This document shows positions 6,273-54,147 of a stretch of 64,000 nucleotides of DNA, piece after piece. Numbering within the stretch: position 1 is the stretch's first letter; every line of letters begins with the position of its first letter. The notes under the pieces were generated by a model. That model was not told the DNA's origin, made no database searches, and saw only the letters and a list, made by a program, of their open reading frames with translations. A program made the translations under genes and the position numbers. This stretch comes from Scenedesmus sp. PABB004 (lineage: Eukaryota): NCBI GenBank assembly GCA_014905635.1, contig JABVCE010000009.1, forward strand, positions 62,001 to 126,000, read 5' to 3'.

Positions 6273-8949
6273 TGCCTGGCGTGCGCGTGTGGCGCAGCGC
6301 ACTCGCCGCAGGGGGCACGGCGGCGGCTGGCGCGCGCGCGGCCCACGCGCGCCCGCGCGCGCGCAGGCGGCGCCGGCGAGGGCGCGGTGCGGCTGCTGGA
6401 GGTCGCGACGGAGATGGGCCACCAGCTCGCCAACATGGCCATGCTCTACGTCCTCATCGGCCTCCTCAACAAGCGCGCGCGCACCGCCGGCAACAACGCC
6501 GCGCGCCAGGCGAGAGCCGCGCAGCCGCGCCGCGCAGCCGCGCCGCGCAGCCGCCGCCCGCTCGCGCGCGCCGCCCGCCCGCTCGCGCGCGCGCTGCGCG
6601 CGCCGCCGCCTCACGCCGCGCGCGCGCTGCGTGCTGCGCGCCCGCCAGGAGGAGGTGCTGCTGTCCATCTGCATGGGCCTCGCGATCTGCAACCTGCTCG
6701 CGAGCCTGCGCGCGGACAACGCGCAGGACTACGTCTACATGGGCTACTTCCTCATCTGTGAGCACACAGACAGGCCCTTTGCTGTCTGCTGTGTTGTGAG
6801 CCAAGCAAAGCAATGGCCCTTTGCTGTGTGCTGTGTGTGCTGCCTGGCCCGCCCGCGCCGCCGCCTGCTGCGTGCCATCGCTGCTGCGTGCCGTGCGCCG
6901 TGCGCTGTGTGCTGTGCGCGGCCCACGCCCGCGCCCGCGCCCACGCCCGCCCCGCGCCGCGCGCCGTCCGTCAGGCACGAGCACGTTCCTCAAGATCCGC
7001 TGGTGGGTGGGCACGGGCCTGCTGGCGACGCCGACCGTCGCGGTGCGCATCTGGTACAGCTCGGCGGCGCCGAGGTGAGAGGAAGGGGGCGGGGCGCACG
7101 GGGCGCCTGCCGCCGCCGCCGGCCGCGGCCGCATCATCACGCCCCCACCGCTGCCATGTCGTCGCGCGCCGCCGCCGCCGCAGCGCGCTCCTGCCGCCGG
7201 ACGCGGTCGTGCACATCGTGGTGGCCTGGGCGGTGGGCGGGCTGATGGCCTATCTCACAGACTCGTACCGCAGGTGAGGCGGCGTGCGTGCCCGCCCAGC
7301 GCACCGCGGGGCGGCAGCGCCGCGGCCTGCGCGGCCGGCGCCGGCCGCAGCGGCGCGCCCCGCTGAGCGCGGCCGCGGCGGCGGGGTCGTGGCGCGCGCA
7401 GGCAGATGTACTCGCACGCGCGCCTCGCGGCGGCGGCGCACGAGAAGGAGATGCAGGAGGCCACCGCGCGCATACAGGCACGCGCGCGCCGGGCGCGGCC
7501 CGCGTCGCCCTCACGCTCTGCCGCGCCGCGCGCGCGGGCCGGCGCCGCGCGCCGCTGACAGGCGCCGCGCCGCGCCCCGCCGCGCCGCGCCGTTCCCTCT
7601 GCGCAGGCGCAGCGCGAGCTCGCGGCGGCGCAGGCGCAGGCGGGGCAGCGCGCGCTGACAGTGGCGCGCGAGAAGGCGGCGCACGAGGCCAAGAGCGAGT
7701 TCATGAGCCTGATGTGCCACGAGGTGCGTGTGTGTGGGCGTGTGGGTGTGTGTGGGTGTGTGGGTGTGTGGGAGTGGGTGTGGGTGTGGGGCGCACGCAC
7801 GCACGGCGCGCGCGGCACGCTCAGCGACCCCGAGCACGGCGCGGGCGCGGGCGGCTTCGCGCGCGGCCGCCACCGCAGCTGTACGGCAGCGCCTGTCAAG
7901 AATGACGTGCGCACGGCCGTGCAGACACCATTCTTGACAGGCGCTGCTGTGCAGCGGCGGCGGCGGCCGCGCGCGTTAGGCCCCCCTCCCCCATCTGTCC
8001 AGACCCTCGCCCCGCCCCCACACACACCGGCACCCTCGCCTCCCACCCACCCACCCTGGCTCGCCCCCGCCGCGCCCGCCCGCGCCCCGCCGCGCCGCCC
8101 GCCGCCCGCCGCCCGCGCGCGCCGCCGCGCCAGGTGCGCACGCCGCTCAACGGCTGCCTCGCGAGCGCCGAGATGCTGCTGGGCATGACGCTCAACGACG
8201 AGCAGCGCGAGCTCGCCAACACCATACGCGTGAGCGGCTCCATCCTGCTGTCAACGGTCTCAAACTTCCTCGACTTTTTCAAGCTCGAGGTGCGCGACGC
8301 TGGGGGGGGGGGGGGCGGCCCGCCGCCGGCCCGCGCCCGCCGGCCCGCCGCCGCGCTCCGCCCACTCCTGCCTTCCCCCCACGCACACACACGCGCAGGC
8401 GGGGAAGCGGCTCGACATCGTGCGCAGCGAGGTGGTGCTGTCGGACCTGGTCGGCGACGTGCACTGCATCATCGAGGCCATGATCGGCCGCGGCGGCGCG
8501 GTCGCGCTGCAGCCGCCGCAGCTGCTCGGCGTGCCCGACGCGGTGCTGTGCGACCCCGACCGCCTGCGGGGCATCCTGCTTAACCTTTACACCAACGCAG
8601 CCAAGTTCACCAAGCGCGGCCACATCCAGCTGCGCGTGCGCAGCGTCCCCCGCGACTTCACGCCGCCGCCGCCGCCGGGGTTCAGCGCGATTACGCTCAA
8701 GCCGAGCTACGGCCCCAGCGCGAGCAGCCACAGGTGCGGCGGCGGGCGCGCGCGCGCGCGCGCACGCGCAGCGGGCACGGCGTGCGCGGCGGGGGGGGGG
8801 CTGAGCAGACGCGCGCCCGCCCGCGCGCCGCGCCCTGCCAGGAGCATGGACATGTCCAGCCACGTGGTTATGACGCCCGCGGCGGACGGCGCGACGGAGC
8901 AGCAGCAGCTGGGCCAGCAGCAGGGCCAGCAGCAGCAGCTCAAGCAGCC

Positions 8950-8984
<35 letters not shown>

Positions 8985-8994
8985 TCAAGCAGCC

Positions 8995-9027
<33 letters not shown>

Positions 9028-10891
9028 GCAGCAGCAGGACCAGCAGCAGCAGGAGCAGCAGCCGCCGCCGGGCACGCCGTCGGCTGCGGCGGCGGCCGAC
9101 GCCGGCGGCAGCCTGCAGCAGCAGGCAGCGGCCGGTGCGCCGGAGCAGGCGCAGCAGGCGCCCGCCAAGGTTCGCACAGCCGAGCGGCAGTTCTGGCGCC
9201 ACGCGCCGCAGTGGGCGCGGCACCTGCTGCTGCCCAACGGCGCGGAGCGGGCCGCTCGCGCGGCGCCGGCCGGCGGCAGCGAGGGCGGCAGCAGCGCCGC
9301 GAGCAGCAAGGCGGACGGTGGCCCCCAGTATGAGGTGCACGCGATGAGCAGCGCCGCGCCGGCGAGCAGCGGCGGCGACGACCCCGGCGGCGGCGGCGCC
9401 GACGGCCCCGCCGGCGGCGCGCCGTCGCCATCGCCGTCGCCATCGCCGTCGCCGTCGCCGTCGCTGTCGCCGCCGACGTCGTGCCCGCTGCCGGAGCTGC
9501 CGGCGCCGTCGGGCCCCGCCGCGGCCGCGGCCGCGGGCCTGCCGCCCGCGGGGCCGTCGTCGTCGGCCGCGCCGCGCGCGCGGCGCAGCCTCGGTGACGA
9601 GGCGTGCTGGCTGCTGTTTGAGGTGGAGGACACCGGCGTCGGCATCACGCGCGACGGCCTGGCCAGCCTCTTCCGCGAGTTTGTGCAGGGCACGGAGGAC
9701 GAGATGAGCAAGCCGCGCACGCGCGGCGGCACCGGCCTCGGCCTCAGCATCTGCAGCAAGCAGGCGCGCCGCGCCGCGGCGCGGGCGGCGCGCGGGCGGC
9801 GGGCGGCCGCGGGGCGGCGCGGCGCGGGGGCTGCCCGCGACGCGCGCCGGCGCCGGGTGGGGGCGCCTGGCCCGCCCGGCCGAGGGCTGGCGCGCCGCGC
9901 GCGCGCCGACGCCGCCCGCCCGCCGCCGTACACATGTGCGCCGCAGGTGGGCGTGCTCGGCGGCGTCATTGGTGCGCGTTCCTGCCGCGGGCAGGGCAGC
10001 TGCTTCTGGTTTGCCATTCCGACCTACCTGCGCTCACCCAAGGGCAGCAGCCGCGAGGAGCGCCGCAAGTCGGTCGAGCTTCTGCAGCAGCAGGCAGCGG
10101 CGGCGGCGGCGGCGGTCGCCGCCGCGCCGTGGCCGGGCGGCGGCGGCGGCGCCGGCAGCAGCGCCGGCGCCGGCGGCGCGGCGAGCAACGTCGCCACGCC
10201 CAGCGTGCTGCACTCTGGCCTGTACCAGAGCGCGGCGCTGCCGGGCGGCGCGCGCGGCGGCGGCACGGGGAGCAGCAGCACCGCCGCCGGGCCGGCGCCG
10301 GGCGGCGTCGCGGCGCCGGCGCCGGCGCCGCTCGTCTCGACGGCGGTCGCGGCGCCGCCACCGGGCGGCGGTCGGCCGGCGGGCCCGCCGGCGCGCGTGG
10401 GGCCGTCGCTGAGCCTCGACGGCCGCGCGGCGGGCGCGCCCGCGCTCGACGTCGGCCGGCTCGCCGGGCGGCGCGTGCTGCTGGCGGAGGACAACCTCAT
10501 CAACCAGACCGTCGCGCGCAAAATGCTGAGCAGCCTCGGCATGGCCGTCGAGGTCGCGGCCAACGGGCTCGAGGCGCTGACCGCGGTGCGGCGCGCCGCG
10601 GCCGACGCGGCGGCCGGCGGCTTTTCGCTGGTGCTCATGGACATGGCGATGCCGGTCATGGGCGGCGTGGAGGCGACGCGCGCGATCCGGGCCGAGGGGC
10701 ACGGCCTGCCCGTCGTCGCGATGACCGCCAACGCGAGCGACCGCGACCGCGACGAGTGCGCGGGCGCGGGCATGAACGGTTTCCTGTCCAAGCCGGTGCT
10801 GCGCGACCAGCTCGCGCGCGCGATCCTCGCCGCGCTCGACGAGCACGACGCGTGCCGCGGCGGCGCCGGCGGCGGCGGCGGCGGCGGCTGA
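5863..10891 (+). CDS. Membrane-anchored hybrid histidine kinase (multi-TM N-terminus, HisKA, HATPase_c, receiver domain)
   Basis: H box AKSEFMSLMCHE|VRTPLNG, N box ILLNLYTNAAKFT, G1 FEVEDTGVGI, G2 GGTGLGLSICSK. Receiver RVLLAEDNLINQ...LVLMDMAMPVMGG...AMTAN...FLSKP. Several hydrophobic exons lie at 6096-7273. The start codon is inferred. Confidence 0.9.
7858..7975 (+). ncRNA. Long intronic hairpin, candidate pre-miRNA
   Basis: 7880-7904 pairs with 7929-7953 (25 bp including two G:U on the + strand), extended by 7858-7871 pairing with 7962-7975. Lies in histidine kinase intron 7724-8133. Confidence 0.5.
8898..9061 (+). repeat. CAG-rich repeat encoding a polyglutamine tract inside the histidine kinase
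   Basis: (CAG)n runs in frame with ORF 8420..10891. Confidence 0.85.
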
Positions 10892-15819: not shown

Positions 15820-18800
15820 TCACAGCGCGCAGAGGTTCTCCTTGGGGTGCATGCGCGCGAGCAGCGCGCTGCAGGTGAGGCGCAGCACCTCGATGACGCC
15901 CAGCGCGACGAGCAGCGGCGTGACGAGCGCGCCGGCCGACATCGTGAGCGCGCCCGCGACGACGACGGTGACGAGGATCGCCGCGTTGCTCAGCATCACG
16001 CCCGCGAGCTGCCACAGCGCGACGGCCTCGCGGCTGGGCAGTGTCATCATGGCGAGCAGGCCGTTGAGCGGGCCGCGGCCGCCCATGACAAACTGCACGC
16101 CCGCGACGACCGCGAGCACGTGCGGCAGCGGGCCGAGCGCCCACGCGGCGAGGCCCTTGAAGAGCGCCGCGCCCGGGAGCGCCGCGAGCGCGAGCGTCGC
16201 GCTGTGCAGGTGGAGCTGCATGCCGCGGCTCTGCAGCAGCCCGACCGCGGCCGCGACGCCGACGATGCTCGCGGCAAACGTCGTCCCGCTGACCGCGACC
16301 ATGCCGGCCGTGCCGCGCAGCACGCACAGCAGGTAGCCGAGGACGCTGAGGCCGGTCATGTCCAGCACGCTGGTGAGCAGGGAGAGGTGGGGGCTCTTTG
16401 GCCCGGAGAGCATGACGAGGCGCTGCTCGCTCCACTTCATGTTGAGCTTGAGGTGCGTGTAGCCGGGCGCGAGCGACTCGGGGAGCCACAGCCACGTCGC
16501 GATCGCGGTCAGGCCGAGCGCCGCGCCGCATGCGACGCCGAGGAAGGGCATCGCGCTCGCGCTGAAGTAGGTCAGCGCGGCGCAGCAGGCGAGTAGGAAC
16601 GACTTGAACGCGTCGCTCACCAGCAGCAGGTGGTACCCGACCTGAAGGTGTGTGTGTGTGTGTGGGGGGGGGGGGCATGGGCGGGGCGTGGTGAGTGTGC
16701 ATGCACCACACGGCGCGCGCGGTTGGCCCGGCAGCCGGCGCGAGGCAGCTGGGCTCAGTGTTTAGAGGGTTTGGAGGGCTCAGAGGGTTCAGGGTTCGCA
16801 CCTCGCTGAGCTCCTGGTTGCAGCCCATGAAGCCCAGCGACACGAGCGGTGCGCCGGAGAGGGCAAAGGGCGAGGTGAGCAGCAGTGCGACGTTCATCGA
16901 CTGCTGCCACAGGAAGCTCAGCACCACCAGCAGCAGGCACAGCAGCGTGGTGAACGCGACGGTGTGCACGTAGCCCCTGTGCGGTGCGGGCGCGGGCGGC
17001 ATGTCGGCGCGCCGGCGGCAGCGGAGCCAGCGCCGCTGGCGTGCCGCCGCCGCCGGCTGCTCCCGGCTGCCGCGCAGCTCACTTGGGCGTCTTTTTGAAC
17101 GCGAGCGTCGTCCACATCGGCGCGGCGGCGGTGGAGAGCACGAGCTGCCACATCACGCGCATGCCGAGGCCGTTGAGCCCGGGGAGCCACTCGGCGTCGT
17201 GCGGGCGCAGCGGGCAGCTGGACCAGGTCTGGCGGCTGATCTGCTGCAGGATCATGAACGCCAGCAGCAGCAGGCTGGGCAGCATGCTGAGGCTCTGCAG
17301 CAGCACGACCAGGTAGTTGCTGAACGCGTGCTTCGGCGACACCTCCTCGTCCTGCCCGTACCGCTTGGCCTTGGCGTGGTGCCCGCCCCCGTGGCCGCCG
17401 TTGGCGTGGGCGCCGTGGTGGCCCTTGCCAAAGCCGAGCAGGTGCAGGCGGCCCGCGCCGCCGCCGCTCGACTTGGCGGGCGCGCCGCCGTCGGTCGAGG
17501 GGGCCTTGGCCGGCGTGACGGTGACGTTGACGATGCCCGGCGGCGGCGCGCTCGCGACGAGCGCGGCCTGGAGGTTGAGGTTGCGCCGCTGCCACGACTG
17601 CGCAAAGTAGGTGTCCGTGTCGGCGGTCGCGCGGCCGAGGCGCGACGCGCCGTGCCCGCTCGCCGCGCTCGCGCTCGCGGCGCCGATCTTGCGCCAGAGG
17701 CGCTCGTATGCCACCATCTGGTCCTCAACGCTGAAGCGGCGCGCGAGCGCGGCGCCGATGAGCGCCCGCTTCTTGTCCGCGCTCGTCGCGAGCGCGGCGT
17801 TGAACGCGGATGCTAGCTTCGCGGCGAGGTGCGGCACCGTCGCGGCGGCTGCGGCGCGTCGCGGCGGCGGGCGGCGCGTCGGCGCGAGGGCTTGCGCACC
17901 CTCCTCACGCGAGTGCTGCGCGCCAGCACGGCAGGCCGCCAAGCCACGCGCGTCCCTCGCAGTCCCCGGCCGGCTGCGCGGCCCGCGGGGCACACCTGCT
18001 TGGAAGTAGAAGCCAGGCATCTTGCCGAGGCCGCCGGTCTCGTTGCCAATGATCAGCCCGCCCGCCCAGCCAAACTCAATGTCGACCAGCCCGCACGGCT
18101 CGTACCTGCATGCGGGTGCGTGGGCGACGGTGCGTGAGCGAGCGGCGCGTGAGCGACGGCGCGCGAGCGCGATCGCGCGCGCGGCGCCGCGCTGTGACGT
18201 GCTGCGGCGCCGCGTGCCGTGAGGGGCAGAGGCAGAAGTCGGCGGCCGCGAGCACGAGCTCTTTCTCGTCGCCCGCGACGTAGTGGTTGGCCGGCGCGAC
18301 GAGGCGGCCGGGGTAGTCCAGCGCCAGCATGCCCAGGCTCTCCTGCGCCTCCGCGCCCGCGACGTCGCCGAGCGGGCCGAGCACGAGCAGCTGCAGCTTG
18401 GGGTGCCGCGCCAGCACCTGGCGGGCGCGGGGGGGGGGGGGGGGGGGGCGCGCGCGCGCGAGGGGCGTCGGCGTCGGCCGCGCGCTCGCGCCGCGCGCTC
18501 GCGCCGGGCGGCCGCGGGCGGCCGCGGGCGGCCGCGGGCGGCGCGGCGTGGCGCGAGCCCCGGGCCGCACCGCTGGCGCGGCGTGGGCGATGATGTCGAC
18601 GCCCTTCTGGTGCGTGAGGCGGCCGAGGAAGATGGCGAGCTCGTACTGCTCCCCGACCGCGAGGCCCATGCGCGCCTGGACCTGCAGCTTGGCCGCGGTC
18701 TTGCGCCGGATCGCCTCGTCCGCGCCGATGCCCTCGCCTGCCCACGTGCCGGCGGGGTCCATGGCGTTCAGGATGCCGATGACCTCGCCTGGCGGCGGTC

Positions 18801-21800
18801 ACGGGGCGGCCAGGGGCCGGTCACGGGGCGGCGGCGGCGGCGGAGGATGTTGGTCAGGCGTCAAGGCGGGCCAGGGCGACCAAAGAAAGCGCGCGCATGC
18901 TGGGCAGCCGCAGCTGCTGCGGCGGCGGCGGCGCGGCGTCCCACTCCCCCCCCCTTTGCTCGCCCCGCCCGCGCTCCCTCCGCTCTCTCACCCTCGGGGA
19001 TCTGCCAGAAGGGGCTGAGGCGGGTGCGGATCTCGCTCGCGTACTTGGGGCTCACGGCGGCGCAGCCGACGCCCTTCTGCGCCTCGACCATGTGGCTCAG
19101 CAGGCTGTGCAGCGTGTCGAACGCCGACTTGTGCTCCGTGTGCTTGCCCACGGCGGCGGGGTTGAGGTTGAACATGGAGTAGAGGTAGGCGCGGCGCTGC
19201 TTGGTCGGCAGCGCAAACACGCCGTTGTAGTGCGCGTTGTGCGCGATGTAGAGCACCTGGGTTTAGGCCGCGGCGTGGAGCGGGGCCGCGGCGTGGCGGG
19301 GCGCTGGTTGGTTGCTCGTCCAAGGCCGGCCGGCGCGCGCACGCGCGCGCGCGAGAGAGAGGCAGAGAGGGCAGCAGCGGCGCGGCGGGTGCGGGCGCGG
19401 GCGGCGGCGGCGCTGCGGCTGCGCACCTGGGGGCGCAGGTGGCGGGGCAGGTACTGCAGCGACAGCGCGCCGTGGTAGTCGTGCAGCTGCAGGCGGCGGG
19501 CGCCCCAGTTCATGATGACCGTCGCGACCGCCTGGTTGACCACGCTGCGGGGCGGCCGCGAGAGACAGGGTTTAGTTTGGTCAACGCCGCGACGGGCCGA
19601 GGTGAGGGCCATGTGTCAGCACACTGACACGACAGCACAGCCCGCGCGAGCGAGCCCGGCAGCCCCGCGCCCTGGGCGCCCGCGCGAGAGCGCGCCCGGC
19701 GCGCCTGAGCCAGGTGATCATGTCGTGCTCGCTCGCAAAGCTGTAGATGTCGCTGCGGCTGCGGTGCCGGAAGACGTTGGCCTGCAGCAGCAGGTACCTG
19801 CGCGGTGAAGGGGGCGGTGCGGGCGCGGCGCGGCGCGGCGCGGCGCGGCGCGGCGCGGCGTGGCGCGGCGCGGTCAGCGCTGCAGGCGGCGGCTGCAGCG
19901 CTGCAGGCGCGCGGGCGGGTCGCGGCCCCGGAGCGAGGGGTGCCGCTCGGCGTCGCGCACCTGCGCGCCTTGCCCGGCGGCGCGTCGGGGATGACGAGGT
20001 CGAACACCTCCACCTGGTGCGCCGCGTGGCCGACTTGGACGTCAAAGCGCAGCGCGGGCGGGCCGGACATGAACTTGGGCCCCGGCGCGGCGGGGTCGGC
20101 GTAGGCCGGCGCGTAGAGCGGCGCGCAGAGCACCATGTCGCCCGGCCAGTCGCGCGCAAAGGTGTCCACCACCTTGCCCAGCCCGCCAAAGACAAAGCCG
20201 TCGAGGCCGAGCTCGGGGATGGTGTACTCCATGGCGACGTGCATGATGCTGTCGGGCCCGAGCGGCGACACGCTGTGCGTGCTGTGCGCCGCGCTGCCGG
20301 GCGACGCGGCGCCGTCGGTGCGCGGCGTCGTCGCCGCGGGGCTGGGCGGGCTCTTGTCGCGCACGGCGGCAATGAAGCCGTGGTCGTCCTCGTCGCTGTC
20401 CAGCGCCTGCGACAAAGCGGGGGCGGGGGCCGCGGGGCGTGAGCTGGCGCGGCCCGGCTGCCGCCGCCGCCGCTGGCGCAGGCGCGCCGGCGCCGCTGCC
20501 CCGCGCCCGCCCGCCGCCCCGCCTGCCGCGCACCGCCATGCAGCGCAGGGAGCCGCTCTTGTGCAGCTCGGACGCGGAGTCGACCTTGCTCGTGCCCGCG
20601 GCGTCGCAGCGCTGCACGGCGTGGCTCCCCAGCTTTGCCTCCACGCCCGGCAGCGCGGCGGGCGCGCCGCCGGTGCTGCTGCCGGGCGTGCTGTCGAGCA
20701 CGGGGCTCGCGCCCGCGGCCGCGGCCTTGCGGTTGAGGTGCGCCGTGAAGGTGGTGCAGCAGTTCAGCACGCACGCGGGCGGGCGCATGATGCCCCACCA
20801 GATGGAGAGGCAGACGATGGCCATGAGCAGCAGCGTGGCGGTGAAGACCACCTTGTCCAGCGACATCTGCGGGGCAGGGAGGTAAGGTAGGCAGGAGGGA
20901 GGCGGGGAGGCGGGGCAATCACCTCAGCGGGGCGTGCGGCGGGGGCGCGCGACGCGGGGCTCGCGCGCCGTGCGTGCTGTGTGCTGCATGCGGCGCGGCG
21001 CGCGCGCACCAGCAGGCGGCGGGGCGGCGCGGGGAAGAAGCTCGCCACGGGGCGGGGCGCGACGACAAACACCAGCGGCTGCAGGCTCGTGAGGCGCAGG
21101 TCGGCCGTGCCGTCGGCGCCAACCGTGAGCGTCTGGTTGGGGTTGAAGATGTTGGCCAGCGTGCGGCCGCGCAGGCCCTCCGGCAGGTCGGTCAGCGCGA
21201 CGACGCGCGGGAGCTCGTGGCTCGCGTTGCGCGCGGCCTGGCCCGACACGACGACGAGCGCGCGGTCGCCGCGCGCAAAGGCCAGCACGTAGCCGTCCGC
21301 CAGCAGCGGCTCGTAGTCCGCCTCCCACAGCCGCAGCGCCGCGCGGTACCTGCGTGCGGCCGGGCGCGCGGTCGGCCGCGGCGTGGGCGGCGGCGCCGGC
21401 CAGGGCGGCGCCCCCGGCCAACCCTCCAGCGCAGGCCGACCAGCCTCGCCCGCCGCCCAGCGCGCCTGCCCGCGCCGCGGCCGCGGCCCGCCCTCGCTCG
21501 CGCCGCCGCCCGCCCTGCCCTTGACCCTCGCCCCCAAGCCCTGCGGCGCGGGCCGCACCAGTTGAGCATCTTGAGGTTGACGTAGAAGGGCGCGGACGCG
21601 CTGTAGTCGCTCTTCTCCCACAGCGCGTCGCGCTGCACGTCCATGAGCGCCTCGGTGCCGTAGTAGACGATTGGGATGCCGGGGATGAAGTAGGTGAACA
21701 CAAGGGAGTTGCTGGTCGGTTTGTTTGTTGGTTGGTTTAGTTTAAGTAGTTCAAACAGGGAGCGGGGCGCGCGCGGGGCGGGCGTGGGTCGGGGCCGGGG

Positions 21801-24151
21801 GCGGCCCCGGCGGCGCGCGGCGGGGCGGGGCGCGGGCCGGCGCCAGCCGCCGCGGCGCGGCGCGCCCGCGAGCTCACAGGATCATCGCCTCGTCGGTGCC
21901 CTCGTGCGCGGCCATGCGGGGCATGTCGTGGTTGTCCATGAAGTTGCCGAGGATCGGCACCGCGCCAGGCGACGTCGCCGACAGCAGGACGTCCACCGCC
22001 GCCTGCGCGCGCGCGCGCGCGCGCGCGAGCGTGAGCGCCCGCCAGCGCCGCGCTGCCGGGCCTCGATCCACATGCTCGCTGGGCCCCGCCAGCTGTGCTG
22101 CCCCGCGCGCCGCGAGCGCAGGGTGCTGCGGGTGCACTGCGCACCTTGAGCAGCGTCGTGTTGGCGGGGTTATACGGGTAGCGGCCGTCGGGGCCGAGGA
22201 AGACGCGGCTGCTCGCGCCGTAGAGGCCGTACGAGAGCTGGCTGTGCAGCTGGTCGGTCGCGACCATCTCGGCGAGGCGGCGCGTGCCGTTCTGCCAGTC
22301 CATGTCCAGCACCTCGCCGATGGTCAGGATCTTGGACCGCGCCTTGATATCCTGCAGGAAGGTCTGTGTGCACGCGGCGCGGTGCGGCGCGGCGCGGTCC
22401 GGGCGGGGCGGCGGGGTCGCCGCCGGCGCCGAGGGACGGCGCGCGCGCGCGGGCCGGGCCGGGCCGGGCCTGGCGCGGTGCAGGCACGAGGGCCGGCGCG
22501 CGCTCGCGGGCGCGTGCGCGCACCTTGGGCATGTGCTTTGCCGCGTCGACGCGGAACGCATCCACGTGGTACTCGTCGCGCACCCACTTCATCCACGCGT
22601 GCAGCGTCTCCGCGACGTGCGGGACGCTCTGGTTGAGGTCGGGCAGGCCCTTGATGCGGCAGACCTCGAGCGCGCGCGGGCTCTCGTCGGGGTTGTTGCA
22701 CGTCCCCGGCTCGCAGCCTGGCGGCGCCGGGCGCGGGCGTGAGCGCGGGCCCGGTCGCCCGGCGGCGCCCGGCGGCGCCCGGCGGCGCCCGCGGCGGTGC
22801 GCGGCAGACCCTGCACCGCAGCCCTGAGCCCTGAGCCCCGAGCCCGGGGCGGGCGCGGTTGCACGCACCGTCGCACGAGTGGTAATACTCCGGCTTGTCA
22901 AAGGTCATCTCCCCGATGTCCTCCTCAGCAAAGTAGCCAGAGTGGTTGGGCACGATGTCCAGCATCACCCACATGCCTGGGCGCGCCGCGTGGGCGGCGC
23001 AGAGGGGCTCAGGCACGCGGTGCAGCCGGCGCAGCGCGGCCCCGGCGGCCTGGCTCCCCTGCCGCCTGCTGCCGCCGCCGCTGGTGCTGCTGCTGCCGCT
23101 GGTGCTGCTGCTGCCGCTGGTGCTGCTGCTGCCGCTGGTGCTGCTGCCATCGCTGCCGCCGCCGCTGCTACTGCTGCCGCCGCTGCTGCTGGCCTGGCGC
23201 TGCTGCGTGACAGCCTCGCGGCCCGCCCGCCCGCGCGCCGGCCGCCGGCGCGCCGGCTCACCCCTGTCGTGGATGGCCTTGGTCAGGTCAGCAAAGTCCT
23301 GGGGCGTGCCCAGCATGGAGTTGAGGTCCCACAGGTTCTGTGCACGTGGGCGGGGTGGGCCGCGTCAGCGCGCACGCGCCCCATGTGTGTGTGGGGCCGG
23401 CCGGCCCGCGCGGCCCGCGCGCGCGCAGGCCAGCCCCGCTTGCGGCTGGCTGGCTCCGGATTGGCCGCCGCGGCCCGCGACGCCGTGCACGCTGGCCAGA
23501 GCAGCTGCCTCTCGTCAGCTGAGCTGCTCAGCGCCTCACCTTGGGCCAGTAGCCTGCGACGGGGCCGCGGGGCGGCGGCGGCGCGCGGCGCGCGTCAGGG
23601 GCCGGCGCGGGCGCGGCGAGGCGCGACACGCCGCCAGGGCCGGGCGTGAGCTCTGAGGGATCTGGGCAGCGCCCCCGCGCAGCCCCGCCGCCCCTCATGG
23701 GCGCGGGCAACCGCCCTGCCAGGGCTGCCGACCACACCACACCCACCGTGCCAGCCGTCCTGGAGCTCGCGCACGGGCCCGCCCGTCTGCGACGTGACGG
23801 GGCTGATCCAGACGGCATCGAAGCCCATGCCCTGCAACCGCGGCGGGGTGTGAGGCGGGCGCGGCATCCCGGCGCGGGTCGGTTGCGGTCGATCCGCACC
23901 TGAATGTAGTCCAGGCGCTGGCGCAGGCCGACGTGCGTGCCGCCGCAGGCATTATCGAGGTCCTTGCACGGCCGCGGGACGGCGGGGCAGTCGGCCAGGC
24001 CGAAGCGGTCCGTCAAGATGTGCAGCACCGAGCGGTTCGCCCAGGCCTCGGGCGGCGGCGGCTGCCATTGCGACTTGGCGGCGGTAGCGATGCCGAGCGC
24101 CACCGCCAGCAGCGCGGCGAGCAGCAGCGCTGGCTGGGCGGGGCGCCCCAT
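15820..24151 (-). CDS. Alpha-glucan synthase-like (Ags1/Mok1 architecture): signal peptide, GH13 alpha-amylase domain, TM helix, GT5/GT-B synthase domain, multi-pass TM domain; about 1703 aa
   Basis: 21 exons: 24151-23900, 23831-23747, 23553-23540, 23337-23262, 22976-22869, 22717-22524, 22363-22145, 22002-21878, 21711-21559, 21349-21010, 20866-20534, 20406-19961, 19797-19705, 19544-19427, 19256-18992, 18788-18571, 18417-18218, 18105-17996, 17848-17083, 16976-16802, 16641-15820. They sum to 5112 nt in one open frame. GH13 motifs: ILTDRF, LDYIQGMGFDAVWISP, WHGYW, LDIVPNH, LPDL, FRVDAAKH, IGEV, DNHD, GIPIVYYGTE. GT motifs: MEY...GGLG, HDYHGAL, HNAHYNG, FLGRLTHQKG, PSRYEPCGLVDIEF, GGLGKMPG. Confidence 0.82.
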
Positions 24152-32059: not shown

Positions 32060-35000
32060 ATGCTGGGCGCGGCGCGGCTGGCGCGGGCGGGCGCGGGCCG
32101 GCTGCTGGCGGCGTGCGGCGGAGCAGCGGCGCCGGGCCCGTCGCCGCGCGCCGGCAACGGCGGCGCGCTGCTGCGGCAGCTCAGTGGCGCCCCTCAGCCG
32201 CGCGCCTGGGAGCGTGGTGGTGCCGCCGCGCTCACCGGCGGCCGTGCCGTCGCCGCGGCTGCTGCAGCGCGGCAGCAGCGCGGCGCGCCCACGCCCAGGC
32301 GCCGGCCGTGCTCGAGCGCCGCGCAGCCGGCGGCGCCGCCGCCAGCGGGGAGCGCGCCCGCGCAGCAGCCGCAGACGCCGCAGCCGGGGCCGTCGGCGCA
32401 GTCCGCGGCCCCGCTCGCGCCGCAGCCGGCGGCGCCGCCGCCGCCACGGCCGGAGCCGCGCCGCCGGCCCGTGCTGACGCCGGCGGCGGCGGCCGCGGTC
32501 GAGGCATACCTGGGCACGCTCAACGAGCAGCAGCGCGCGGCGGCGCTCGGCGCGGAGCAGCACCAGCGCGTCATCGCGGGGCCGGGCAGCGGCAAGACGC
32601 GCGTCGTGGCGGCGCGCGTGGCGCGGCTGATTGCGGAGGGCGTCGACCCCAGCCGTCTGCTCGTCTTCACCTTCACGCGCAAGGCCGCGGGCGAGCTGCA
32701 GGAGCGCCTGCAGGCCCTGCTGGGCTCCCGTGTGGCGCGGCAGCTGCACGCGTGCACCTTCCACAGCCTCTGCCACGCCCTGCTGCGCGAGCACGGCGCG
32801 GCCGTGGGGCTGGGCGAGGTGCTGGTCGCGGACGACGATGACGTGAAGGGCGTCGTCACTGACGTCATGCTCGGCCGCGGGATGACGCAGGTGCTCGGCG
32901 GCCTGCCGCCCGCCGGCGCCGGCGCGGCCGCCGTCGCGGCTGCGGGCGGCGCCGCGACCGAGTCTGCGGCCAGGTTCGAGGCTGCCGCGCGGGAGGCGGC
33001 GTCCCTGAGCGTGGACGAGGCGGTGGGCCACTTTGGGCGCATGAAGAACTTTGTGGAGAGCACCTACCAGTGAGCAGGAGGTCTCGGGCGGGCGCGGCGG
33101 GCGGGCGGCGGGGCGGGCGGGGGCGGGGCGGGCGGGCGGGCGGGCGGGCGGGCGGGCGGGCGGGCGGGCGGGCGGGCGGCGGGCGGGCGCGCGGGCGGGC
33201 GGGCGCGCGGGCGGTGGCTGAGCGGGCGGTCATGCAGCGGGCGCCGGCGGGCCTCTAAGGATCCTGCGCCGCCGCCGCCAGCCCGCGCAGCGGCGACGCG
33301 CCGATGGCGCGCCGCGCCGGCGCCGACATCGTGGGCGAGCTGAGCCGCGCCGGCGTGCGCCTCGGCGCGGGCGGCAGCGGCGCGCTCGCGCACCTCGGCC
33401 GCCAGTACGACGCGTACGTGGCGGAGATGGAAGCGCGGGGCCTGGTGGACTTCAACGACCTGCTGCACGCCGCGCTCGCGATCGTGCAGAGCGACCGGGT
33501 GCGCGCGCCGTGCCGGCCGGGCGCGGCGCCGCTGCTGCCGCGGCCGCTGCCGCGCCAGTGCCGGCGGCGCGGCGCCTGCGGCGGGCGGGGCGGGCCGGGC
33601 GAGCTCACGCGCGCGCGCGCGCCCGCCGCGGCGCAGGTGCGCGCCGCGCTGCACGAGCGCTGGAGCCACGTGCTCGTCGACGAGTCGCAGGACACCAACC
33701 CCTGCCAGTTTGCCCTCATCCGCGCCATCACTGGTGCGCGCCTCGCGGCGCCGGCGGCGCTGCAGTGCGGCGCTTGCTTTCCGCACGCGCGCGCCCCGCC
33801 GCGGCCCCGCGCCGCGCCCACGCGCGCGGCGAGCGAACCCTTGCCGCGCCGCGCCCCCTTGCCCCGCCCCAGGCCCGCAGTCCAGCCTCTTCATGGTCGG
33901 AGACGCAGACCAGGTGGCACACCGCGGGGCGCGACTGTGCGGCGCCGCCGGTCGGCGCCGCCCAGCCCCGATCCTCGCGGCGGCGGCGGCGCCCCCGCGC
34001 GCGCCCACGCGTGTGCCCACACCGCGTGGCCGCGCCGCGCCGCGGCGCCCGCAGGCCATCTACGCCTTCCGCGGCGCCGACAGCGCGCTGCTCACGCACA
34101 GCTTCCGCCAGACCTACGCCGGCGCCGTCACGCGGCACCTGACCAGCAACTACCGCAGCCGCGAGGCCATCGTGCGCGCGGCTGACCTCATCCGCTTCCA
34201 GGAGTGAGCGCGGCGCATTGCAGTGCATTGCATTGCCGCGCGTCGCCGCGCGCTCGTCCGCCCGCGCCCCGCTGACCGCGCGCCCCCGCCCGCCGCCGCC
34301 GCGCCGCGCGCGCGCGCGCGCGCCCGCCGCGCCCCGCAGCAAGACGAGCGCGGCGCGGCAGCTCGCGCGCCCCGCGGCGCCGATGCGGCGCAACGGCGGC
34401 GCGGGCGACGCGGTCGTGCTGGTCGCGGCGGACAACGAGTTTGACGAGGCCGACCAGGCGCTGGCCGCGGTGCAGGACTGGCGCGCCGCAGGCTACGAGT
34501 GGGGGCAGATGGCCCTGCTCTTCCGCGCGGGGCACCTGATGCGCACGCCCTACAGCCGCCTGGTCGAGGCGGGGGTCCCCGCGCACATGCAGGCGCGCGC
34601 GGCGCGGCGGCGCGGCCGCGGCGCCCGCCGGCGGCGGCCGGGCGCGGCAGCGGGGCGGGCGGCGGGCGGCTCGCAGCGCGCTGCCCTGACGCGGCGCCCG
34701 CGCCGCGCCGCGCCGCGCCGCCCGTCCCGCCCGCGCCGCGCGCGTTTGGCCGGCCTCCCCGCAGATCGGCAAAGACTTCTGGGAGAGCGCGGAGGTCAAG
34801 GTCGCGCTCGCGCTGCTGCGCTGCGTCGTCGGCCCGGCGCACGCCACTGGCGCCCGCGTCGCGGCGCGCCTGGTCAAGAAGGGGGGCGTCGCCCTGCCGC
34901 TCACGGCCGGCCTCGGCGAGGCGACCATCGCCAAGCTGGTCGCCTTTATCGCTGACCAGCCCACGAGCGTCGCGGGCAGCGGCGGCGGCGGCGGCGGCGC

Positions 35001-36306
35001 GGCGCAGCAGCAGCTGCCCACGCTCGGCGCCTGCCTCTTCGCCGGCTGCGCGCCGGACGAGCGCAGCGGCGGCGAGGGTGGCGGCGAGGGCGGCGACGCG
35101 GCGGCGGAGGCGGCGGCCGTGGTCGCGCGCTGGCGTGCTGCGCAGGGCGGCGCCGGCGCGTGCGAGGCGCTGCAGGGCCTCGCGCCGCCCTGGGCGCCGC
35201 CCGCGGGGCTCGCCAGCCTCAAAAAGGGCCAGCTTGCAGCCGTGGCGCAGCTGCGCGGCCTCGTCGTGCTGGGCAGGGCCGTCGCGGCGCTCGAGGCGCC
35301 GGAGCAAGTGCTGCACGTGCGTCGCGCCGCGCCGCGCGGAGCGCGGGCCGCCGAGCCGGTCTCTCGCATGCCGCCAGCCACGCGGGCGCGCCCGCCACCG
35401 CTCATGCCGCCGCCGCCGCCGCCGCCGCAGACGGTGCTGGAGGCGTCGGGCGTGCAGCGCGAGCTGGAGGCCGCCGCCGCCAAGCCGGGCTCCGCCCGCG
35501 CCGGCAAGGACGACGCACGGCGACGGCTCAACAACCTGGGCCTGCTGGCGCGCCTCGCGCGCAACCCGCGCGTGTACGACGACCCGGCCGCAGCGGCTGC
35601 CGGGGACGCCGGCGCCGGCGCCGGCAGCAGCAGCAGCAGCAGCCGCGGCAGCGGCAGCGGCAGCAGCGACCCGGGCGGCGGCGCTGCTGGGGGCGACGCG
35701 GACGGCGCGCCGGAGGCCGACGAGGCGCCGCCGGCGCCGCCGGCGGGGCTGGCCGCGCTGCGGCGCTTTGCTGACTTTTGTACGCTCATGGGCGAGAATG
35801 ACGAGGCGCAGGCTGGCGACCGGGTGGAGCTGCTGACGATGCACGCCTCCAAGGGGCGCGAGTGGGACTGCGTCGCGGTGCTGCGCTGCGACGACGGCAA
35901 CGTGCCGAGCCTGCGCAAGGACGACGCAAGCGACGCGCCCGACGCGCTTCAGCAGGAGCAGAACCTGCTGTATGTTGCCGCGACGCGCGCGCGCGACCAC
36001 CTGCTGCTGACCTGGCCCAGGTCGCTCTGGCAGCGGCAGGGCGAAGCGCGCGCGCCCAGCCGCTTCCTCGCCGGCCTGCTGCGCGCGGCGTGGCACGGCG
36101 AGCTCCCCGGCGCGGCCGTGCTCCCGCGGCGCTGGGTCGAGCGCGCCGGCGGCGGCGCCGACCGGCGGCGGGAGGGCTGGGGCGGGCGGCGCGGCGCGGG
36201 CGGCGGCGGCAGGAGTGCGTCTGAGGAGCTGCTGGACGTCACACTTGATGACATCAGCCTCGTGCGCTCGCCGCGGCGCGCGGCGGGCGGGTCGTCGCGG
36301 CGCTAG
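32060..36306 (+). CDS. UvrD/PcrA/Srs2-family SF1 DNA helicase with an N-terminal organelle-targeting-like extension
   Basis: LNEQQ, VIAGPGSGKT, FTFTRKAA, TFHSLC, DFNDLL, VLVDESQDTN, MVGDADQ|AIYAFRGA, LTSNYRS, LLTMHASKGREW, LLYVAATRAR. Confidence 0.92.
33100..33210. repeat. (GGGC)n simple repeat in an intron
   Basis: Directly visible. Confidence 0.85.
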
Positions 36307-36716: not shown

Positions 36717-45838
<9,122 letters not shown>

Positions 45839-46371
45839 CGCGCCAGGCGCCGCGCCGGCGCGCCCGGCGGCTGGTGCTGCTGCGCGCTCACGCCGCGCGG
45901 GCGAGCATCCCGCGGCGCTGCGGCGGCGGCCTCGGCGAAGAGATCGACGAGACGCGCGTCTCGCGACCGCTGGCGGGCTCAGGCGGCCGCCCTGGGCCCG
46001 GGTCGGCGCGGGTGCGGCCGGGCACGGCGGGCGGCGCGGTCGGGAGCGGTCGGCAGCGGTCGCGCGGGACGTGGGTCGGTGCCGAGGTGGTGGCCCTGCT
46101 GCGCGCGGAGCGTTGGCGGCCGCACCAGGCGCCGCGCGCTGGCCTGGTCCTGCGCCGACCGCGACTAACAGGTCTTCGCTGCTCGAGGGCAGCTCTGCCC
46201 TGCTCCGCTCGGCACTCTCAGCGCCACAGCTGTGCGTGGGCGACCCGACTGCGGCGGCGGCGCTGGGCGACCGGGCGGCGCGGGCATCACCGCGGCGCTG
46301 CCGCTGCGCCGGTGGCCTCCGCTCCCTGATCCTCCTGCCTGCCGCGGCCCCGCCTCCAGCAGCGCCGCCGC

Positions 46372-53520: not shown

Positions 53521-54147
53521 GGCGCCGCGCCGGCGCTGGCGGCAGCAGCGGCCGCGCCCGCCGCCGCCCGCCGCGGCGGGGTGTGTTGCTCGGCGCCGCC
53601 GCGCTCGCGGGCTTGGGTTGTGCTGCGCGGCGCCTGCAACGACGGGGGTAAGCGGCGCGCACGCGAGCTGCTGGCGCGGCGGTTGGCGCGCTGCTGCACC
53701 GCGCGGCGTCGGCGGCGCGGGCGGCGGCAGCGGCTGCCCAGGCAAGCGCTGGCGGCGGCGTCGAGGCGACGAAGTTGTGGCGCCCCCGGCCGGCCGGGGC
53801 GTGCGCCTGGTCTCGCGTCAGTGAACTCGAGCGTCGCCCGGGCCCTGCACCCCGGAGGCGCCGCGGCTCACGCCCGCGTCGCGCTCTTCGTCTCGTGCCG
53901 GTGCCACACGCCCTCGCCGCGCCGATCACGCGCACCCAGGCCGCGCAACGCCGTCGGGGAGCTGGCCGTCGCAGCCCGCTCCGCTCCCACCGGCGCCCAG
54001 GCCCGCCCGCCCGGCGCTCCGACGCGCCCCGCGCCCTGATCAGCGCCCTCTCGGCCCGCGCACGCAGCGCGGCGGCGGGGTAGGGCTGTCCAGCAGCAGC
54101 CGGGCGGCGGCAGCGCCGGCGGCGGACCGGCCCCCGGTGCGCCCACG

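Follow-up and report, generated by a model that had tools for sequence, protein, structure and literature searches.

Does a green alga carry, in a single gene, the alpha-glucan synthase architecture of the fungal Ags/Mok proteins? The question is raised by a locus at 15820..24151 on the minus strand of the window (the whole 64,000-nt stretch of DNA that was analysed), where the original prediction had spliced 21 exons into one frame of about 1703 codons. A gene finder built without that exon list, which used dynamic programming to choose among GT/GC-AG introns on the basis of a very strong third-position GC periodicity and was constrained to return one gene, arrived at the same model: a single minus-strand gene of 21 exons and 1703 codons plus stop, running from an ATG at 24151 to a stop at 15822-15820 and including the 21010->20866 junction. 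Introns were 68-285 nt in length, with CAG acceptors in 20 of 20 cases and donors of the GTG type in 18 and GC in two. GC was 0.71 in exons, 0.82 in introns and 0.78 in the whole window, with a third-position GC (GC3) of 0.965 in the coding sequence. The neighbours of the gene in the window include MutS-, Rpb2-, UvrD- and GH77-type genes. When the window protein was aligned with eight homologues by MAFFT, all 20 junctions fell in conserved sequence without an indel, and exons 13-14-15 corresponded to one unbroken stretch in the metagenome relatives P0001-P0003. Judged by these aligned junctions, the gene model is beyond chance.

The product of this nuclear gene is predicted to be a 1703-aa membrane protein composed of a leader, a GH13 module with all three catalytic residues, one helix, a GT5 domain and a domain of about 410 aa and about 12 helices. 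By hydropathy, aa 7-25 form an N-terminal hydrophobic leader and aa 528-546 a single helix, with about 12 peaks beyond aa 1290, and this profile and the homologue alignment agree with the part order first proposed (leader, GH13, TM, GT-B, multi-pass TM), with the signal peptide as a putative one. Single window exons gave weak Pfam matches (Alpha-amylase at E 2.6e-4 and 7.5e-3, Glyco_trans_1_4 at E 4.6e-3) below the Pfam cut-offs, and 13 of 16 window pieces were without any Pfam family. The domain calls therefore lean on full-length homologues and alignment to them, several of the domain and structure results being from homologues 26-53% identical to the window protein.

Exon 1 (23900..24151, aa 1-84; this and all following features on the minus strand) encodes the hydrophobic leader, a putative signal peptide, and the start of GH13, which continues through exon 2 (23747..23831, aa 85-112), the 14-nt micro-exon 3 (23540..23553, aa 113-117) that gives a conserved GYWP stretch, and exon 4 (23262..23337, aa 118-142). 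GYW was found at the micro-exon position in all six homologues covering that region. Regions I-IV of GH13 are intact, as is the Asp/Glu/Asp triad, with region I (DIVPNH) in exon 5 (22869..22976, aa 143-178), region II and its nucleophile Asp (FRVDAAKH) in exon 6 (22524..22717, aa 179-243), region III and the acid/base Glu (GEV) in exon 7 (22145..22363, aa 244-316) and region IV (NHD) in exon 8 (21878..22002, aa 317-357). The barrel ends in exon 9 (21559..21711, aa 358-408), and exon 10 (21010..21349, aa 409-522), which ends in phase 0, provides the C-terminal part of the amylase module. The algal GH13 is more canonical than that of fungal Ags, retaining the region I NH of classical amylases that fungal Ags is without. 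The algal module is also closer to ordinary fungal-type alpha-amylases (195 bits to 6sau_A for homologue P0158) than to Ags GH13 (51-59 bits), and because of this, the GH13 part may have been joined by an independent fusion.

Exon 11 (20534..20866, aa 523-633) encodes the single membrane helix (20795-20851 by hydropathy) followed by a low-complexity, presumptively cytosolic linker that extends into exon 12 (19961..20406, aa 634-781), where GT5 starts with a GGLG motif. The GT5 (GT-B) synthase domain (aa ~684-1230; 17508..20256, introns included) proceeds through exon 13 (19705..19797, aa 782-812, GC donor), exon 14 (19427..19544, aa 813-852) and the GT5 core in exon 15 (18992..19256, aa 853-940); P0001-P0003, which match exons 13-15, carry PF08323. 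The GT-B fold enters its second Rossmann half in exon 16 (18571..18788, aa 941-1013), followed by further GT-B sequence in exon 17 (18218..18417, aa 1014-1079, GC donor) and the conserved EPCGL stretch in exon 18 (17996..18105, aa 1080-1116). Exon 19 (17083..17848, aa 1117-1371) comprises the GT end (about aa 1230), a linker and, from about aa 1290, the first helices of the membrane domain.

The synthase had been thought nearer to Ags than to starch synthases. A phmmer search of 1.84e9 proteins with P0002, which is 97% identical to window exon 15 and covers exons 13-15, returned just 173 matches at E<=1e-3. Many were long multidomain proteins; 12 of 14 long matches had Alpha-amylase and GT domains by Pfam scan, and one match (P0037) is S. 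pombe Mok11. The GT domain of the window model scored about 190-200 bits against S. pombe Ags1/Mok11/13/14 and 266-590 bits against algal proteins, with identities of about 29-32% to the best fungal sequences (E about 1e-50) and 46% to the nearest relative, Scenedesmus sp. PABB004 'mok12' (51% in tree columns). GT5 glycogen and starch synthases (GlgA, GBSS, SSI-IV) share the GT-B fold (Foldseek 2qzs, E 2.6e-16, TM 0.74; VIA Z 29.6) and the PSR-x-EPCGL motif, but are soluble, of about 480-600 aa, free of GH13 and membrane domains, and distant in sequence (about 75 bits for P0158 against E. coli GlgA in the PDB, and E 0.93 for a 206-aa piece).

Phylogenies of the GT domain, in which ordinary synthases were represented by bacterial GlgA-like ORFs rather than by plant starch synthases or eukaryotic UDP-glucose GT5 enzymes, separated these ORFs (11 in number) from the superclade with an SH-aLRT of 100. 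The window protein was placed in a green-algal clade (support 99 in the first tree, 100/100 in the careful tree) as sister to Scenedesmus 'mok12' (100/99). The fungal Ags/Mok clade was monophyletic (100/100) and grouped with a further set of proteins, group X (98/95), with the algal clade as sister to both and outside the bacterial GlgA-like enzymes. An ordinary starch or glycogen synthase is thus rejected by the match profile and by trees with a bacterial GlgA-like outgroup. Of the supposed affinity to Ags, the separation from bacterial GlgA-like enzymes stands, but the protein falls in a separate algal clade rather than within fungal Ags/Mok. It appears to be an algal variant within the Ags family that is compact and branches deeply.

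Fungal Ags/Mok proteins have the same order of leader, outside GH13, one helix, cytosolic GT5 and multi-helix C-terminal domain, and their GT5 is homologous. They differ in length (2300-2450 aa compared to 1703 aa, the window protein being about 700 aa shorter) and in precomputed Pfam families, as the algal homologues are without PF26108, PF26111, PF26114, PF26122, PF26775 and PF26127 (12TM_Mok13). Every clade relative with an organism name was a chlorophyte (6 of 6): Micractinium tetrahymenae ABPG75_014062 and ABPG75_013810, Chlorella ohadii COHA_001031, Micractinium conductrix C2E20_8791, Picochlorum sp. BPE23 M9434_001731 and Scenedesmus 'mok12'. These six have the full architecture, including the algal-type membrane domain. 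Their identity to the window protein is 28-46% along the length, and the window gene is therefore a distinct member. Group X (P0111, P0127, P0137, P0075, P0138, P0144 and others) also combines GH13 and GT5 with one helix and a multi-helix domain; of its 14 rows in the careful tree, 13 formed one clade (99/98), whereas P0071 was beside the fungal clade (60/24), and in P0144 GH13 follows the membrane domain. A set of 494 matches contained no close prokaryotic relative, and identities in its best 80 were 23-35%.

The C-terminal membrane domain (aa ~1290-1703; 15823..17330, introns included) continues from exon 19 through exon 20 (16802..16976, aa 1372-1430) to exon 21 (15820..16641, aa 1431-1703 plus stop), which has about the last 8 of 12 helices and a conserved TLPSRE motif; a TL(P/T)(S)RE-type motif is present in both algal and fungal domains. 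An iterated HMM of the algal domain had no match in about 150 fungal-type proteins. By profile-profile comparison with hhalign, the algal and fungal domains matched at Prob 85.6 and E 5.6e-6 over 201 columns reaching both C-termini, with a score of 55.4 for the true pair compared to at most 19.5 for controls (a reversed alignment and 15 block shuffles). Group X bridged the two, with Prob 95.8 to the algal domain and Prob 94.1 to the fungal one. These comparisons point to remote homology of the algal domain to the fungal one. In an AlphaFold2 model of homologue P0011 (pLDDT 80.7), the last ~400 aa superposed on entire chains of MFS transporters (such as Spns1, SotB, VMAT2 and NorA) at Z 22-29 over 340-386 residues, including residues ~595-1001 on Spns1 9boi_A (Z 29.0, rmsd 3.7, 380 aligned) and a match to SotB 6kki_A (Z 28.1, 353/366 aligned); 41 of the 50 matches listed covered model residues ~575-1001. 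A model of window exon 21 matched the same transporters at Z 12-16. No Pfam MFS family matched the membrane domain even at E<=5, which leaves the predicted fold as the sole ground for the MFS link. From the homologue model, a 12-helix MFS transporter fold is predicted, which differs from the MFS transporters in being fused behind a polymer synthase.

Taken together, the nearest relatives of all large parts appear to belong to the Ags/Mok alpha-glucan synthase superfamily, and the protein as a whole is probably best explained, albeit with some reserve, as an algal Ags-type synthase that would make alpha-glucan with one polypeptide. The leader would direct GH13 to the cell exterior or to a lumen; the chain would then re-enter the cytosol, the site of GT5, through the single helix, and both termini of the 12-helix domain would be cytosolic, as they are in MFS proteins. 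PMC12305055 describes the part order of S. pombe Ags1 and a model of its action, and by analogy GT5 may make an alpha-glucan chain from nucleotide sugar at the cytosolic face, the MFS-like domain may move the chain, or a primer, through the membrane, and the outside GH13 may act as a transglycosylase that trims or joins chains. The product would be an alpha-glucan, either of the wall or extracellular, its linkage (alpha-1,3, alpha-1,4 or mixed) not being readable from sequence.

It is unlikely, although worth serious consideration, that the Ags architecture serves another role, with the MFS-like domain a small-solute carrier (e.g., for sugar, nucleotide sugar or malto-oligosaccharide primer) and the product an alpha-1,4-type glucan, internal or at the surface, rather than a structural alpha-1,3 wall polymer. 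The cargo of MFS proteins is normally small solutes and not polymers, the fold being typical for small-solute and lipid carriers. The GH13 motifs are fully amylase-canonical, unlike those of fungal Ags, database names give Mok14 and some Ags1 as alpha-1,4-glucan synthases, and, given the deep split between the algal clade and its sister (fungi with group X), function may have diverged. Against this, all three clades arrange their leader, single helix, cytosolic GT and 12 helices in one and the same order, and profile comparison shows the membrane domains to be homologous, which suggests that a coupled synthase-export function has been conserved.

An unexpressed or decaying gene copy is very improbable, as the frame is intact over 21 exons with GC3 at 0.965 in each, the catalytic residues are preserved and conserved blocks are kept along the full length of the protein.

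No better is the prospect of two adjacent genes, the first for a secreted amylase with its end near 21010 or 20764, the second for a membrane-bound synthase with its start at the ATG at 20866, a doubt that had been attached to the 21010->20866 junction from the outset. Exon 11 opens with a phase-0 ATG in the window and also in L001, a relative of 58% GC, the gene finder had to return one gene, and read-through of the L001 intron meets a TGA, making an unspliced amylase product formally possible. However, intron 10 (20867..21009) is a gap of just 143 nt without codon periodicity, and its L001 counterpart of 122 nt lies at the same position and codon, with a canonical donor (CTGCTG|GTGCG) and a CAG acceptor (GCAG|ATG) in both. 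The exon-11 Met is replaced by Trp or Leu in 8 of 8 aligned homologues and is therefore not a conserved start. Two metagenome ORFs starting with Val span the junction, P0015 (1505 aa) from GH13 through GT5 to the membrane domain and P0157 (1198 aa) from GH13 through GT5 uninterrupted; P0008 aligned as a single BLAST segment (q22-1171, 34% identity, E 1.6e-175), and continuity at this point also holds for the annotated proteins of Micractinium, Picochlorum and Scenedesmus. The conserved intron and the relatives' spanning ORFs argue that the amylase and synthase parts belong to one gene.

Fungal contamination or recent transfer from a Dikarya fungus, suggested by an architecture best known in fungi, is barely conceivable, given GC and GC3 like those of the rest of the window, the MutS-, Rpb2-, UvrD- and GH77-type genes also in the window, placement in the algal clade apart from a monophyletic fungal clade, and the higher GT identity to Scenedesmus than to any fungal protein. 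The original prediction, too, had argued against contamination, from the native-style introns.

The algal family is already in public annotations without a name: all but one of the homologues are hypothetical proteins in GenBank, and no description of them was found in the literature. The green alga would have an Ags-like layout of a kind that reviews describe as confined to higher fungi, and that a 2019 review calls exclusive to Dikarya (PMC7389562).

The gene lies at window positions 15820..24151 on the minus strand, in a region with a GC content of 0.69-0.80 (500-nt windows) where this strand displays blocks of 0.9-1.0 third-position GC alternating with non-periodic blocks. It was modelled with a dynamic-programming gene finder that used only third-position GC periodicity, GT/GC-AG introns and stop codons as inputs, with position 24151, where the leading ORF has its first ATG, taken as the start. 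By this approach, 21 exons and 1703 codons were recovered, with a stop at 15822-15820 (minus strand), a 14-nt micro-exon and a junction at 21010->20866; the exon count, the length of ~1703 aa and this junction were thus all reproduced from the original prediction. The acceptor was CAG in all 20 introns (68-285 nt in length), and the donors were of the GTG type (18) or GC (2). Within intron 4, a GC-rich triplet-like repeat (23009-23210, minus strand) reads as Ser/Gly or Ala runs in several frames and on both strands.

Relatives were used to examine these junctions. A word-based search with exon 15 detected only three metagenome fragments (P0001-P0003), which were 92-97% identical to exon 15 and in which exons 13, 14 and 15 were uninterrupted. 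A metagenome contig relative, L001 (1572 nt, 58% GC), the one locus recovered by the metagenome scan, contained homologues of exons 11, 12, 13 and 14+15. When the model was aligned with eight homologues by MAFFT, 20/20 junctions were crossed without indel in conserved sequence, and gaps near junctions were confined to variable linkers. The splice junctions are thus supported by comparison with relatives.

The doubt raised at the outset, that the amylase and GT parts might be two adjacent genes split at 21010/20866, was a fair one because the ATG that opens exon 11 follows an exon 10 ending in phase 0. Several findings stand against such a split. The corresponding gap in L001 was preceded by 34 nt that were homologous to the end of exon 10 and stopped at the same CTGCTG|GTGCG donor; the gap itself was 122 nt of unconserved sequence that ended in GCAG|ATG, its window counterpart being 143 nt. 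These 143 nt had no codon periodicity, and the coding phase shifted across the stretch. The position of the exon-11 Met was occupied by Trp or Leu in 8/8 aligned homologues, with no alignment gap there. Two JGI metagenome gene calls, P0015 (1505 aa) and P0157 (1198 aa), begin with Val and are therefore uninterrupted ORFs; each runs from the amylase part through the membrane helix and linker to the end of the synthase, and P0015 also includes the whole C-terminal membrane domain. In addition, the Micractinium protein P0008 aligned with the model as a single BLAST segment (aa 22-1171, 34% identity, E 1.6e-175). Two adjacent genes are thus highly improbable. The L001 intron, the homologue alignment and the single-ORF relatives all join the amylase and GT parts, as had been proposed, and the locus is, as judged by these sequence comparisons, one real gene.

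Hydropathy placed a leader at aa 7-25 and a single helix at aa 528-546 of the encoded protein. From about aa 1290 onwards the C-terminal region is hydrophobic, with about 12 peaks in the family profile. Pfam analysis of the window exons taken singly was mostly blank, and the matches to Alpha-amylase were weak (E 2.6e-4 and 7.5e-3). In the homologues that could be aligned with the model from end to end, P0008 and P0013 among them, Pfam identified Alpha-amylase (E about 1e-36 in these two), Glyco_transf_5 and Glycos_transf_1. The window GH13 retains regions I-IV and the Asp/Glu/Asp triad; by contrast, the NH of region I is lost in fungal Ags. The putative leader and GH13 motifs are those of an N-terminal secreted GH13 module as found across the Ags superfamily, and a single helix lies between GH13 and GT5 in one polypeptide, another feature of that superfamily. 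Hydropathy, motifs and full-length homologues therefore agree on the order first read from the DNA, namely leader, GH13, one TM helix, GT-B synthase and multi-pass domain. When the Scenedesmus homologue was compared with solved structures, its GH13 part matched alpha-amylases best (6sau_A, E 8e-57; TAKA-amylase, 1e-37), and the best matches to its GT part were the glycogen synthase of E. coli (2e-20) and a granule-bound starch synthase (7e-19). The PDB copy searched contained no structure of the Ags type.

The family was defined by a HMMER search of 1.84 billion representative proteins with P0002, the metagenome fragment that spans exons 13-15, as query. Only 173 proteins matched at E<=1e-3 (150 listed); an ordinary GT5 enzyme would have yielded far more. 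Among the matches listed, the long ones fell into size classes of ~1500-1650 aa and 2200-2450 aa, for which names were obtained from two word-based searches. The smaller class included two paralogous hypothetical proteins of Micractinium tetrahymenae, further hypothetical proteins of Micractinium conductrix, Chlorella ohadii and Picochlorum sp. BPE23, and a Scenedesmus sp. PABB004 protein labelled 'mok12'. In the larger class, P0037 was Mok11 of S. pombe, with Ags1, Mok13, Mok14 and the Ags proteins of Aspergillus, Histoplasma and Blastomyces as neighbours. Chlorophyte homologues, for which the original prediction had advised a survey, were thus found in Micractinium, Chlorella, Picochlorum and Scenedesmus. 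Matches of at least 400 aa were separated by GT-domain bit scores and membrane-domain profiles into an algal set, a fungal set and a third set of GH13/GT5/multi-helix proteins, group X. The GT domain of the window protein scored about 190-200 bits to Ags/Mok, and that of the homologue P0158 about 75 bits to GlgA. In a scan of prokaryote genomes, which supplied the outgroup, 494 relatives were detected, of which the best 80 were all GlgA-like and 23-35% identical; therefore, no close prokaryotic homologue was present among the matches listed. On contigs L002-L012, from Bdellovibrionota and related MAGs, several GT5-like ORFs were about 930-1000 aa in length compared to the usual ~480-530 aa and therefore carry an extra domain.

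Phylogenies of the GT5 domain were built at two levels, both without plant starch synthases and eukaryotic UDP-glucose GT5 enzymes. A quick tree (94 rows, 418 columns) was built after removal of proteins shorter than 400 aa, of P0044 and three pullulanases, and of nine rows that covered too little of the domain. It placed an Ags-like superclade (83 rows, SH-aLRT 100) apart from 11 bacterial ORFs; within the superclade, support was 99 for an algal clade of 16 rows, 100 for a fungal clade of 45 and 99 for the 19 rows of group X. A careful tree of 53 rows, of which 9 were bacterial and 14 came from group X, gave support of 100/100 for both the algal clade (12 rows) and the fungal clade (18 rows), 100/99 for the window protein with Scenedesmus, 98/95 for fungal with group X, and 100/99 for the superclade versus the bacterial GlgA-like ORFs. 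The algal clade was sister to fungi plus group X, and thus represents a deeply branching lineage beside the fungi rather than one nested among them. By the search, the bit scores and these trees, in which bacterial GlgA-like ORFs represented the ordinary synthases, the GT5 domain was nearer Ags/Mok than GlgA. The grouping with ordinary starch or glycogen synthases that would have spoken against the original prediction did not occur, given the 173 matches and the position outside the bacterial GlgA-like clade.

The membrane domains were compared at the profile level. An iterated HMM of the last 433 aa of the model matched 12 of 280 proteins, all 12 of algal type. The fungal-type proteins in this set, about 150 in number, gave no match, and a profile-profile comparison was therefore needed. 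By hhalign, the algal (10 sequences) and fungal (44 sequences) profiles matched over 201 columns with Prob 85.6, E 5.6e-6 and a score of 55.4, compared to scores of 12.9-19.5 for controls (the reversed alignment and 15 block-shuffled ones); overall, the algal versus fungal comparisons ranged over Prob 85.6-90.2 and E 5.6e-6 to 1.5e-6. The match was colinear and reached both C-termini, with a common TL-x-(S)RE motif. Thus, at the profile-profile level, the ~12-helix C-terminal domain is homologous to that of Ags/Mok. Group X, in which a single helix likewise precedes GT5 and a multi-helix region, matched the algal profile (Prob 95.8, E 6.9e-9, 307 columns) and the fungal profile (Prob 94.1, E 1.3e-7, 404 columns), both without shuffle control, and appears to bridge the two membrane domains. 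Two group X proteins, P0144 and P0138, represent a circularly rearranged form of the family in the order one helix, GT5 and multi-helix domain; in P0144 the GH13 module is C-terminal (Pfam Alpha-amylase, residues 1429-1581), and its amylase part would still end up outside.

The fold of the membrane domain was predicted for P0011, a member of the algal clade, by AlphaFold2 modelling of its GT5 and membrane domains from an 18-row alignment (pLDDT 80.7, pTM 0.67). The GT part of the model matched glycogen/starch synthases (2qzs, Foldseek E 2.6e-16; VIA Z 29.6), and residues ~595-1001 superposed on whole MFS transporters, including Spns1 (9boi_A, Z 29.0, rmsd 3.7 Å, 380 aligned), VAChT (Z 28.8) and SotB (6kki_A, Z 28.1, 353/366 aligned). 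These Z values were far above the helical background stated for the tool (about Z 14), and 41 of the 50 structural matches listed covered the membrane part. The model of window exon 21 by itself was of lower confidence (pLDDT 66), with its top 50 matches at Z 12-16; these were membrane transporters, mostly MFS, and many were the same chains as for P0011. With a cut-off of E<=5, no Pfam MFS family matched window exons 19 and 21, P0011, P0006, Mok14 or P0121. A 12-helix MFS fold is thus predicted by way of the modelled structure of the homologue P0011 only.

The fungal Ags1/Mok proteins share this plan, and the original prediction of a fungal-type Ags architecture held for the superfamily-level features; those of the narrower fungal clade were absent. 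The window protein was placed outside the fungal GT5 clade, and differs in domain set and length: fungal Ags1/Mok proteins carry PF26108 (GH_Mok13), PF26111 (Ig_Mok13), PF26114, PF26122, PF26775 (HTH_Mok13) and PF26127 (12TM_Mok13) and are about 2300-2450 aa, whereas none of these six families was in the precomputed Pfam lists of 10 algal-type homologues, through which the 1703-aa window protein was judged. Within the fungal family, the source names themselves differ between alpha-1,3 and alpha-1,4. By family and sequence relationships, the window protein belongs with the Ags-type alpha-glucan synthases as a compact and deeply branching algal form, of unspecified linkage. Red-algal UDP-glucose GT5 starch synthases, compared by description, have an amylase-like module, a starch-binding (CBM) tail and no membrane domains; the window protein differs from this class in its ~12 C-terminal helices, and no CBM family was found in the 14 long homologues scanned with Pfam. 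Ordinary starch/glycogen synthases (GlgA, GBSS and SS) are soluble stand-alone GT5 enzymes with a plastid transit peptide in plants; they were rejected on the basis that the window GT5 is set between membrane segments and outside the bacterial GlgA-like clade, and that the N-terminus is a hydrophobic leader by hydropathy. Fungal contamination was also rejected.

Other genes were noted in the window. Exons of a GH77 4-alpha-glucanotransferase of the disproportionating-enzyme type were found at 54139-56632 (plus strand; Glyco_hydro_77 in two pieces, E 1.8e-41 and 3.1e-34); this further enzyme of alpha-glucan metabolism is encoded some 30 kb from the synthase and probably takes part in ordinary starch metabolism. 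The second-largest subunit of an RNA polymerase is encoded by a gene of many exons at 36720-45844 (minus strand; Rpb2 domains 3 and 6, E 1e-21 and 8.5e-18), and a hybrid histidine kinase by a long exon at 8282-10888 (plus strand; HATPase_c, E 2.6e-14, and response-regulator receiver, E 1.4e-22). Pieces of a UvrD-type helicase gene (33262-36213, plus strand; E 1.6e-11 and 4e-19) and, weakly, of a MutS-family gene (126-2941, plus strand; MutS I, III and V, E 1e-4 to 7e-6) were also detected. A hydroxyphenylpyruvate dioxygenase guessed from one peptide at 11.6-13.6 kb had no Pfam match.

The topology of the window protein would suit synthesis coupled to export. The leader would set the GH13 module outside, the single helix would return the chain inward, and GT5 would be cytosolic, followed by an MFS-like domain that would start and finish in the cytosol. 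In the S. pombe Ags1 model, as outlined in part of PMC12305055, GT5 makes the chain, the membrane part extrudes it and GH13 joins chains outside. By analogy, an alpha-glucan may be built inside the algal cell, with the MFS-like domain as the export route for this glucan or for a primer, and remodelling would take place outside.

The sequences themselves are not new, since they are already in GenBank as hypothetical proteins, one of them auto-labelled 'mok12'. No description of Ags-like genes in green algae was found in literature searches, some of which may have missed text with '1,3-glucan' written with a comma, in agreement with the original prediction, to which no such chlorophyte pathway was known. 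The 'AGS1' of a Chlamydomonas preprint is an arginine-pathway gene and not an Ags synthase. A passage of a 2019 review places Ags synthases 'exclusively in Dikarya' (PMC7389562), and a 2013 survey of algal glycosyltransferases has starch synthases as the only entries under GT5 (PMC3797821). A conserved green-algal clade outside the fungal clade challenges the Dikarya origin story.

More tentatively, with doubt outweighing confidence, several green-algal lineages (Chlorellales, Picochlorum, Scenedesmaceae and this very GC-rich alga) may make an unrecognised wall or secreted alpha-glucan. They would do so by an ancient machine contained in one protein, in which a GH13 transglycosylase acts outside, GT5 synthesizes in the cytosol and an MFS fold serves as exporter. 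Such a machine would not be a Dikarya invention, being either older than the Ags clade of fungi or the result of an old transfer between kingdoms, and its MFS fold would be the long-sought fungal export route too. Fungal Ags proteins are antifungal targets. The algal proteins provide a roughly 1700-aa natural minimal version of the enzyme and, being compact, may be easier than the fungal ones to express and study structurally. With the predicted MFS fold, the passage of the chain, or of a primer, across the membrane becomes open to testing as a hypothesis, and algal cell-wall research is offered a candidate synthase for an undescribed alpha-glucan.
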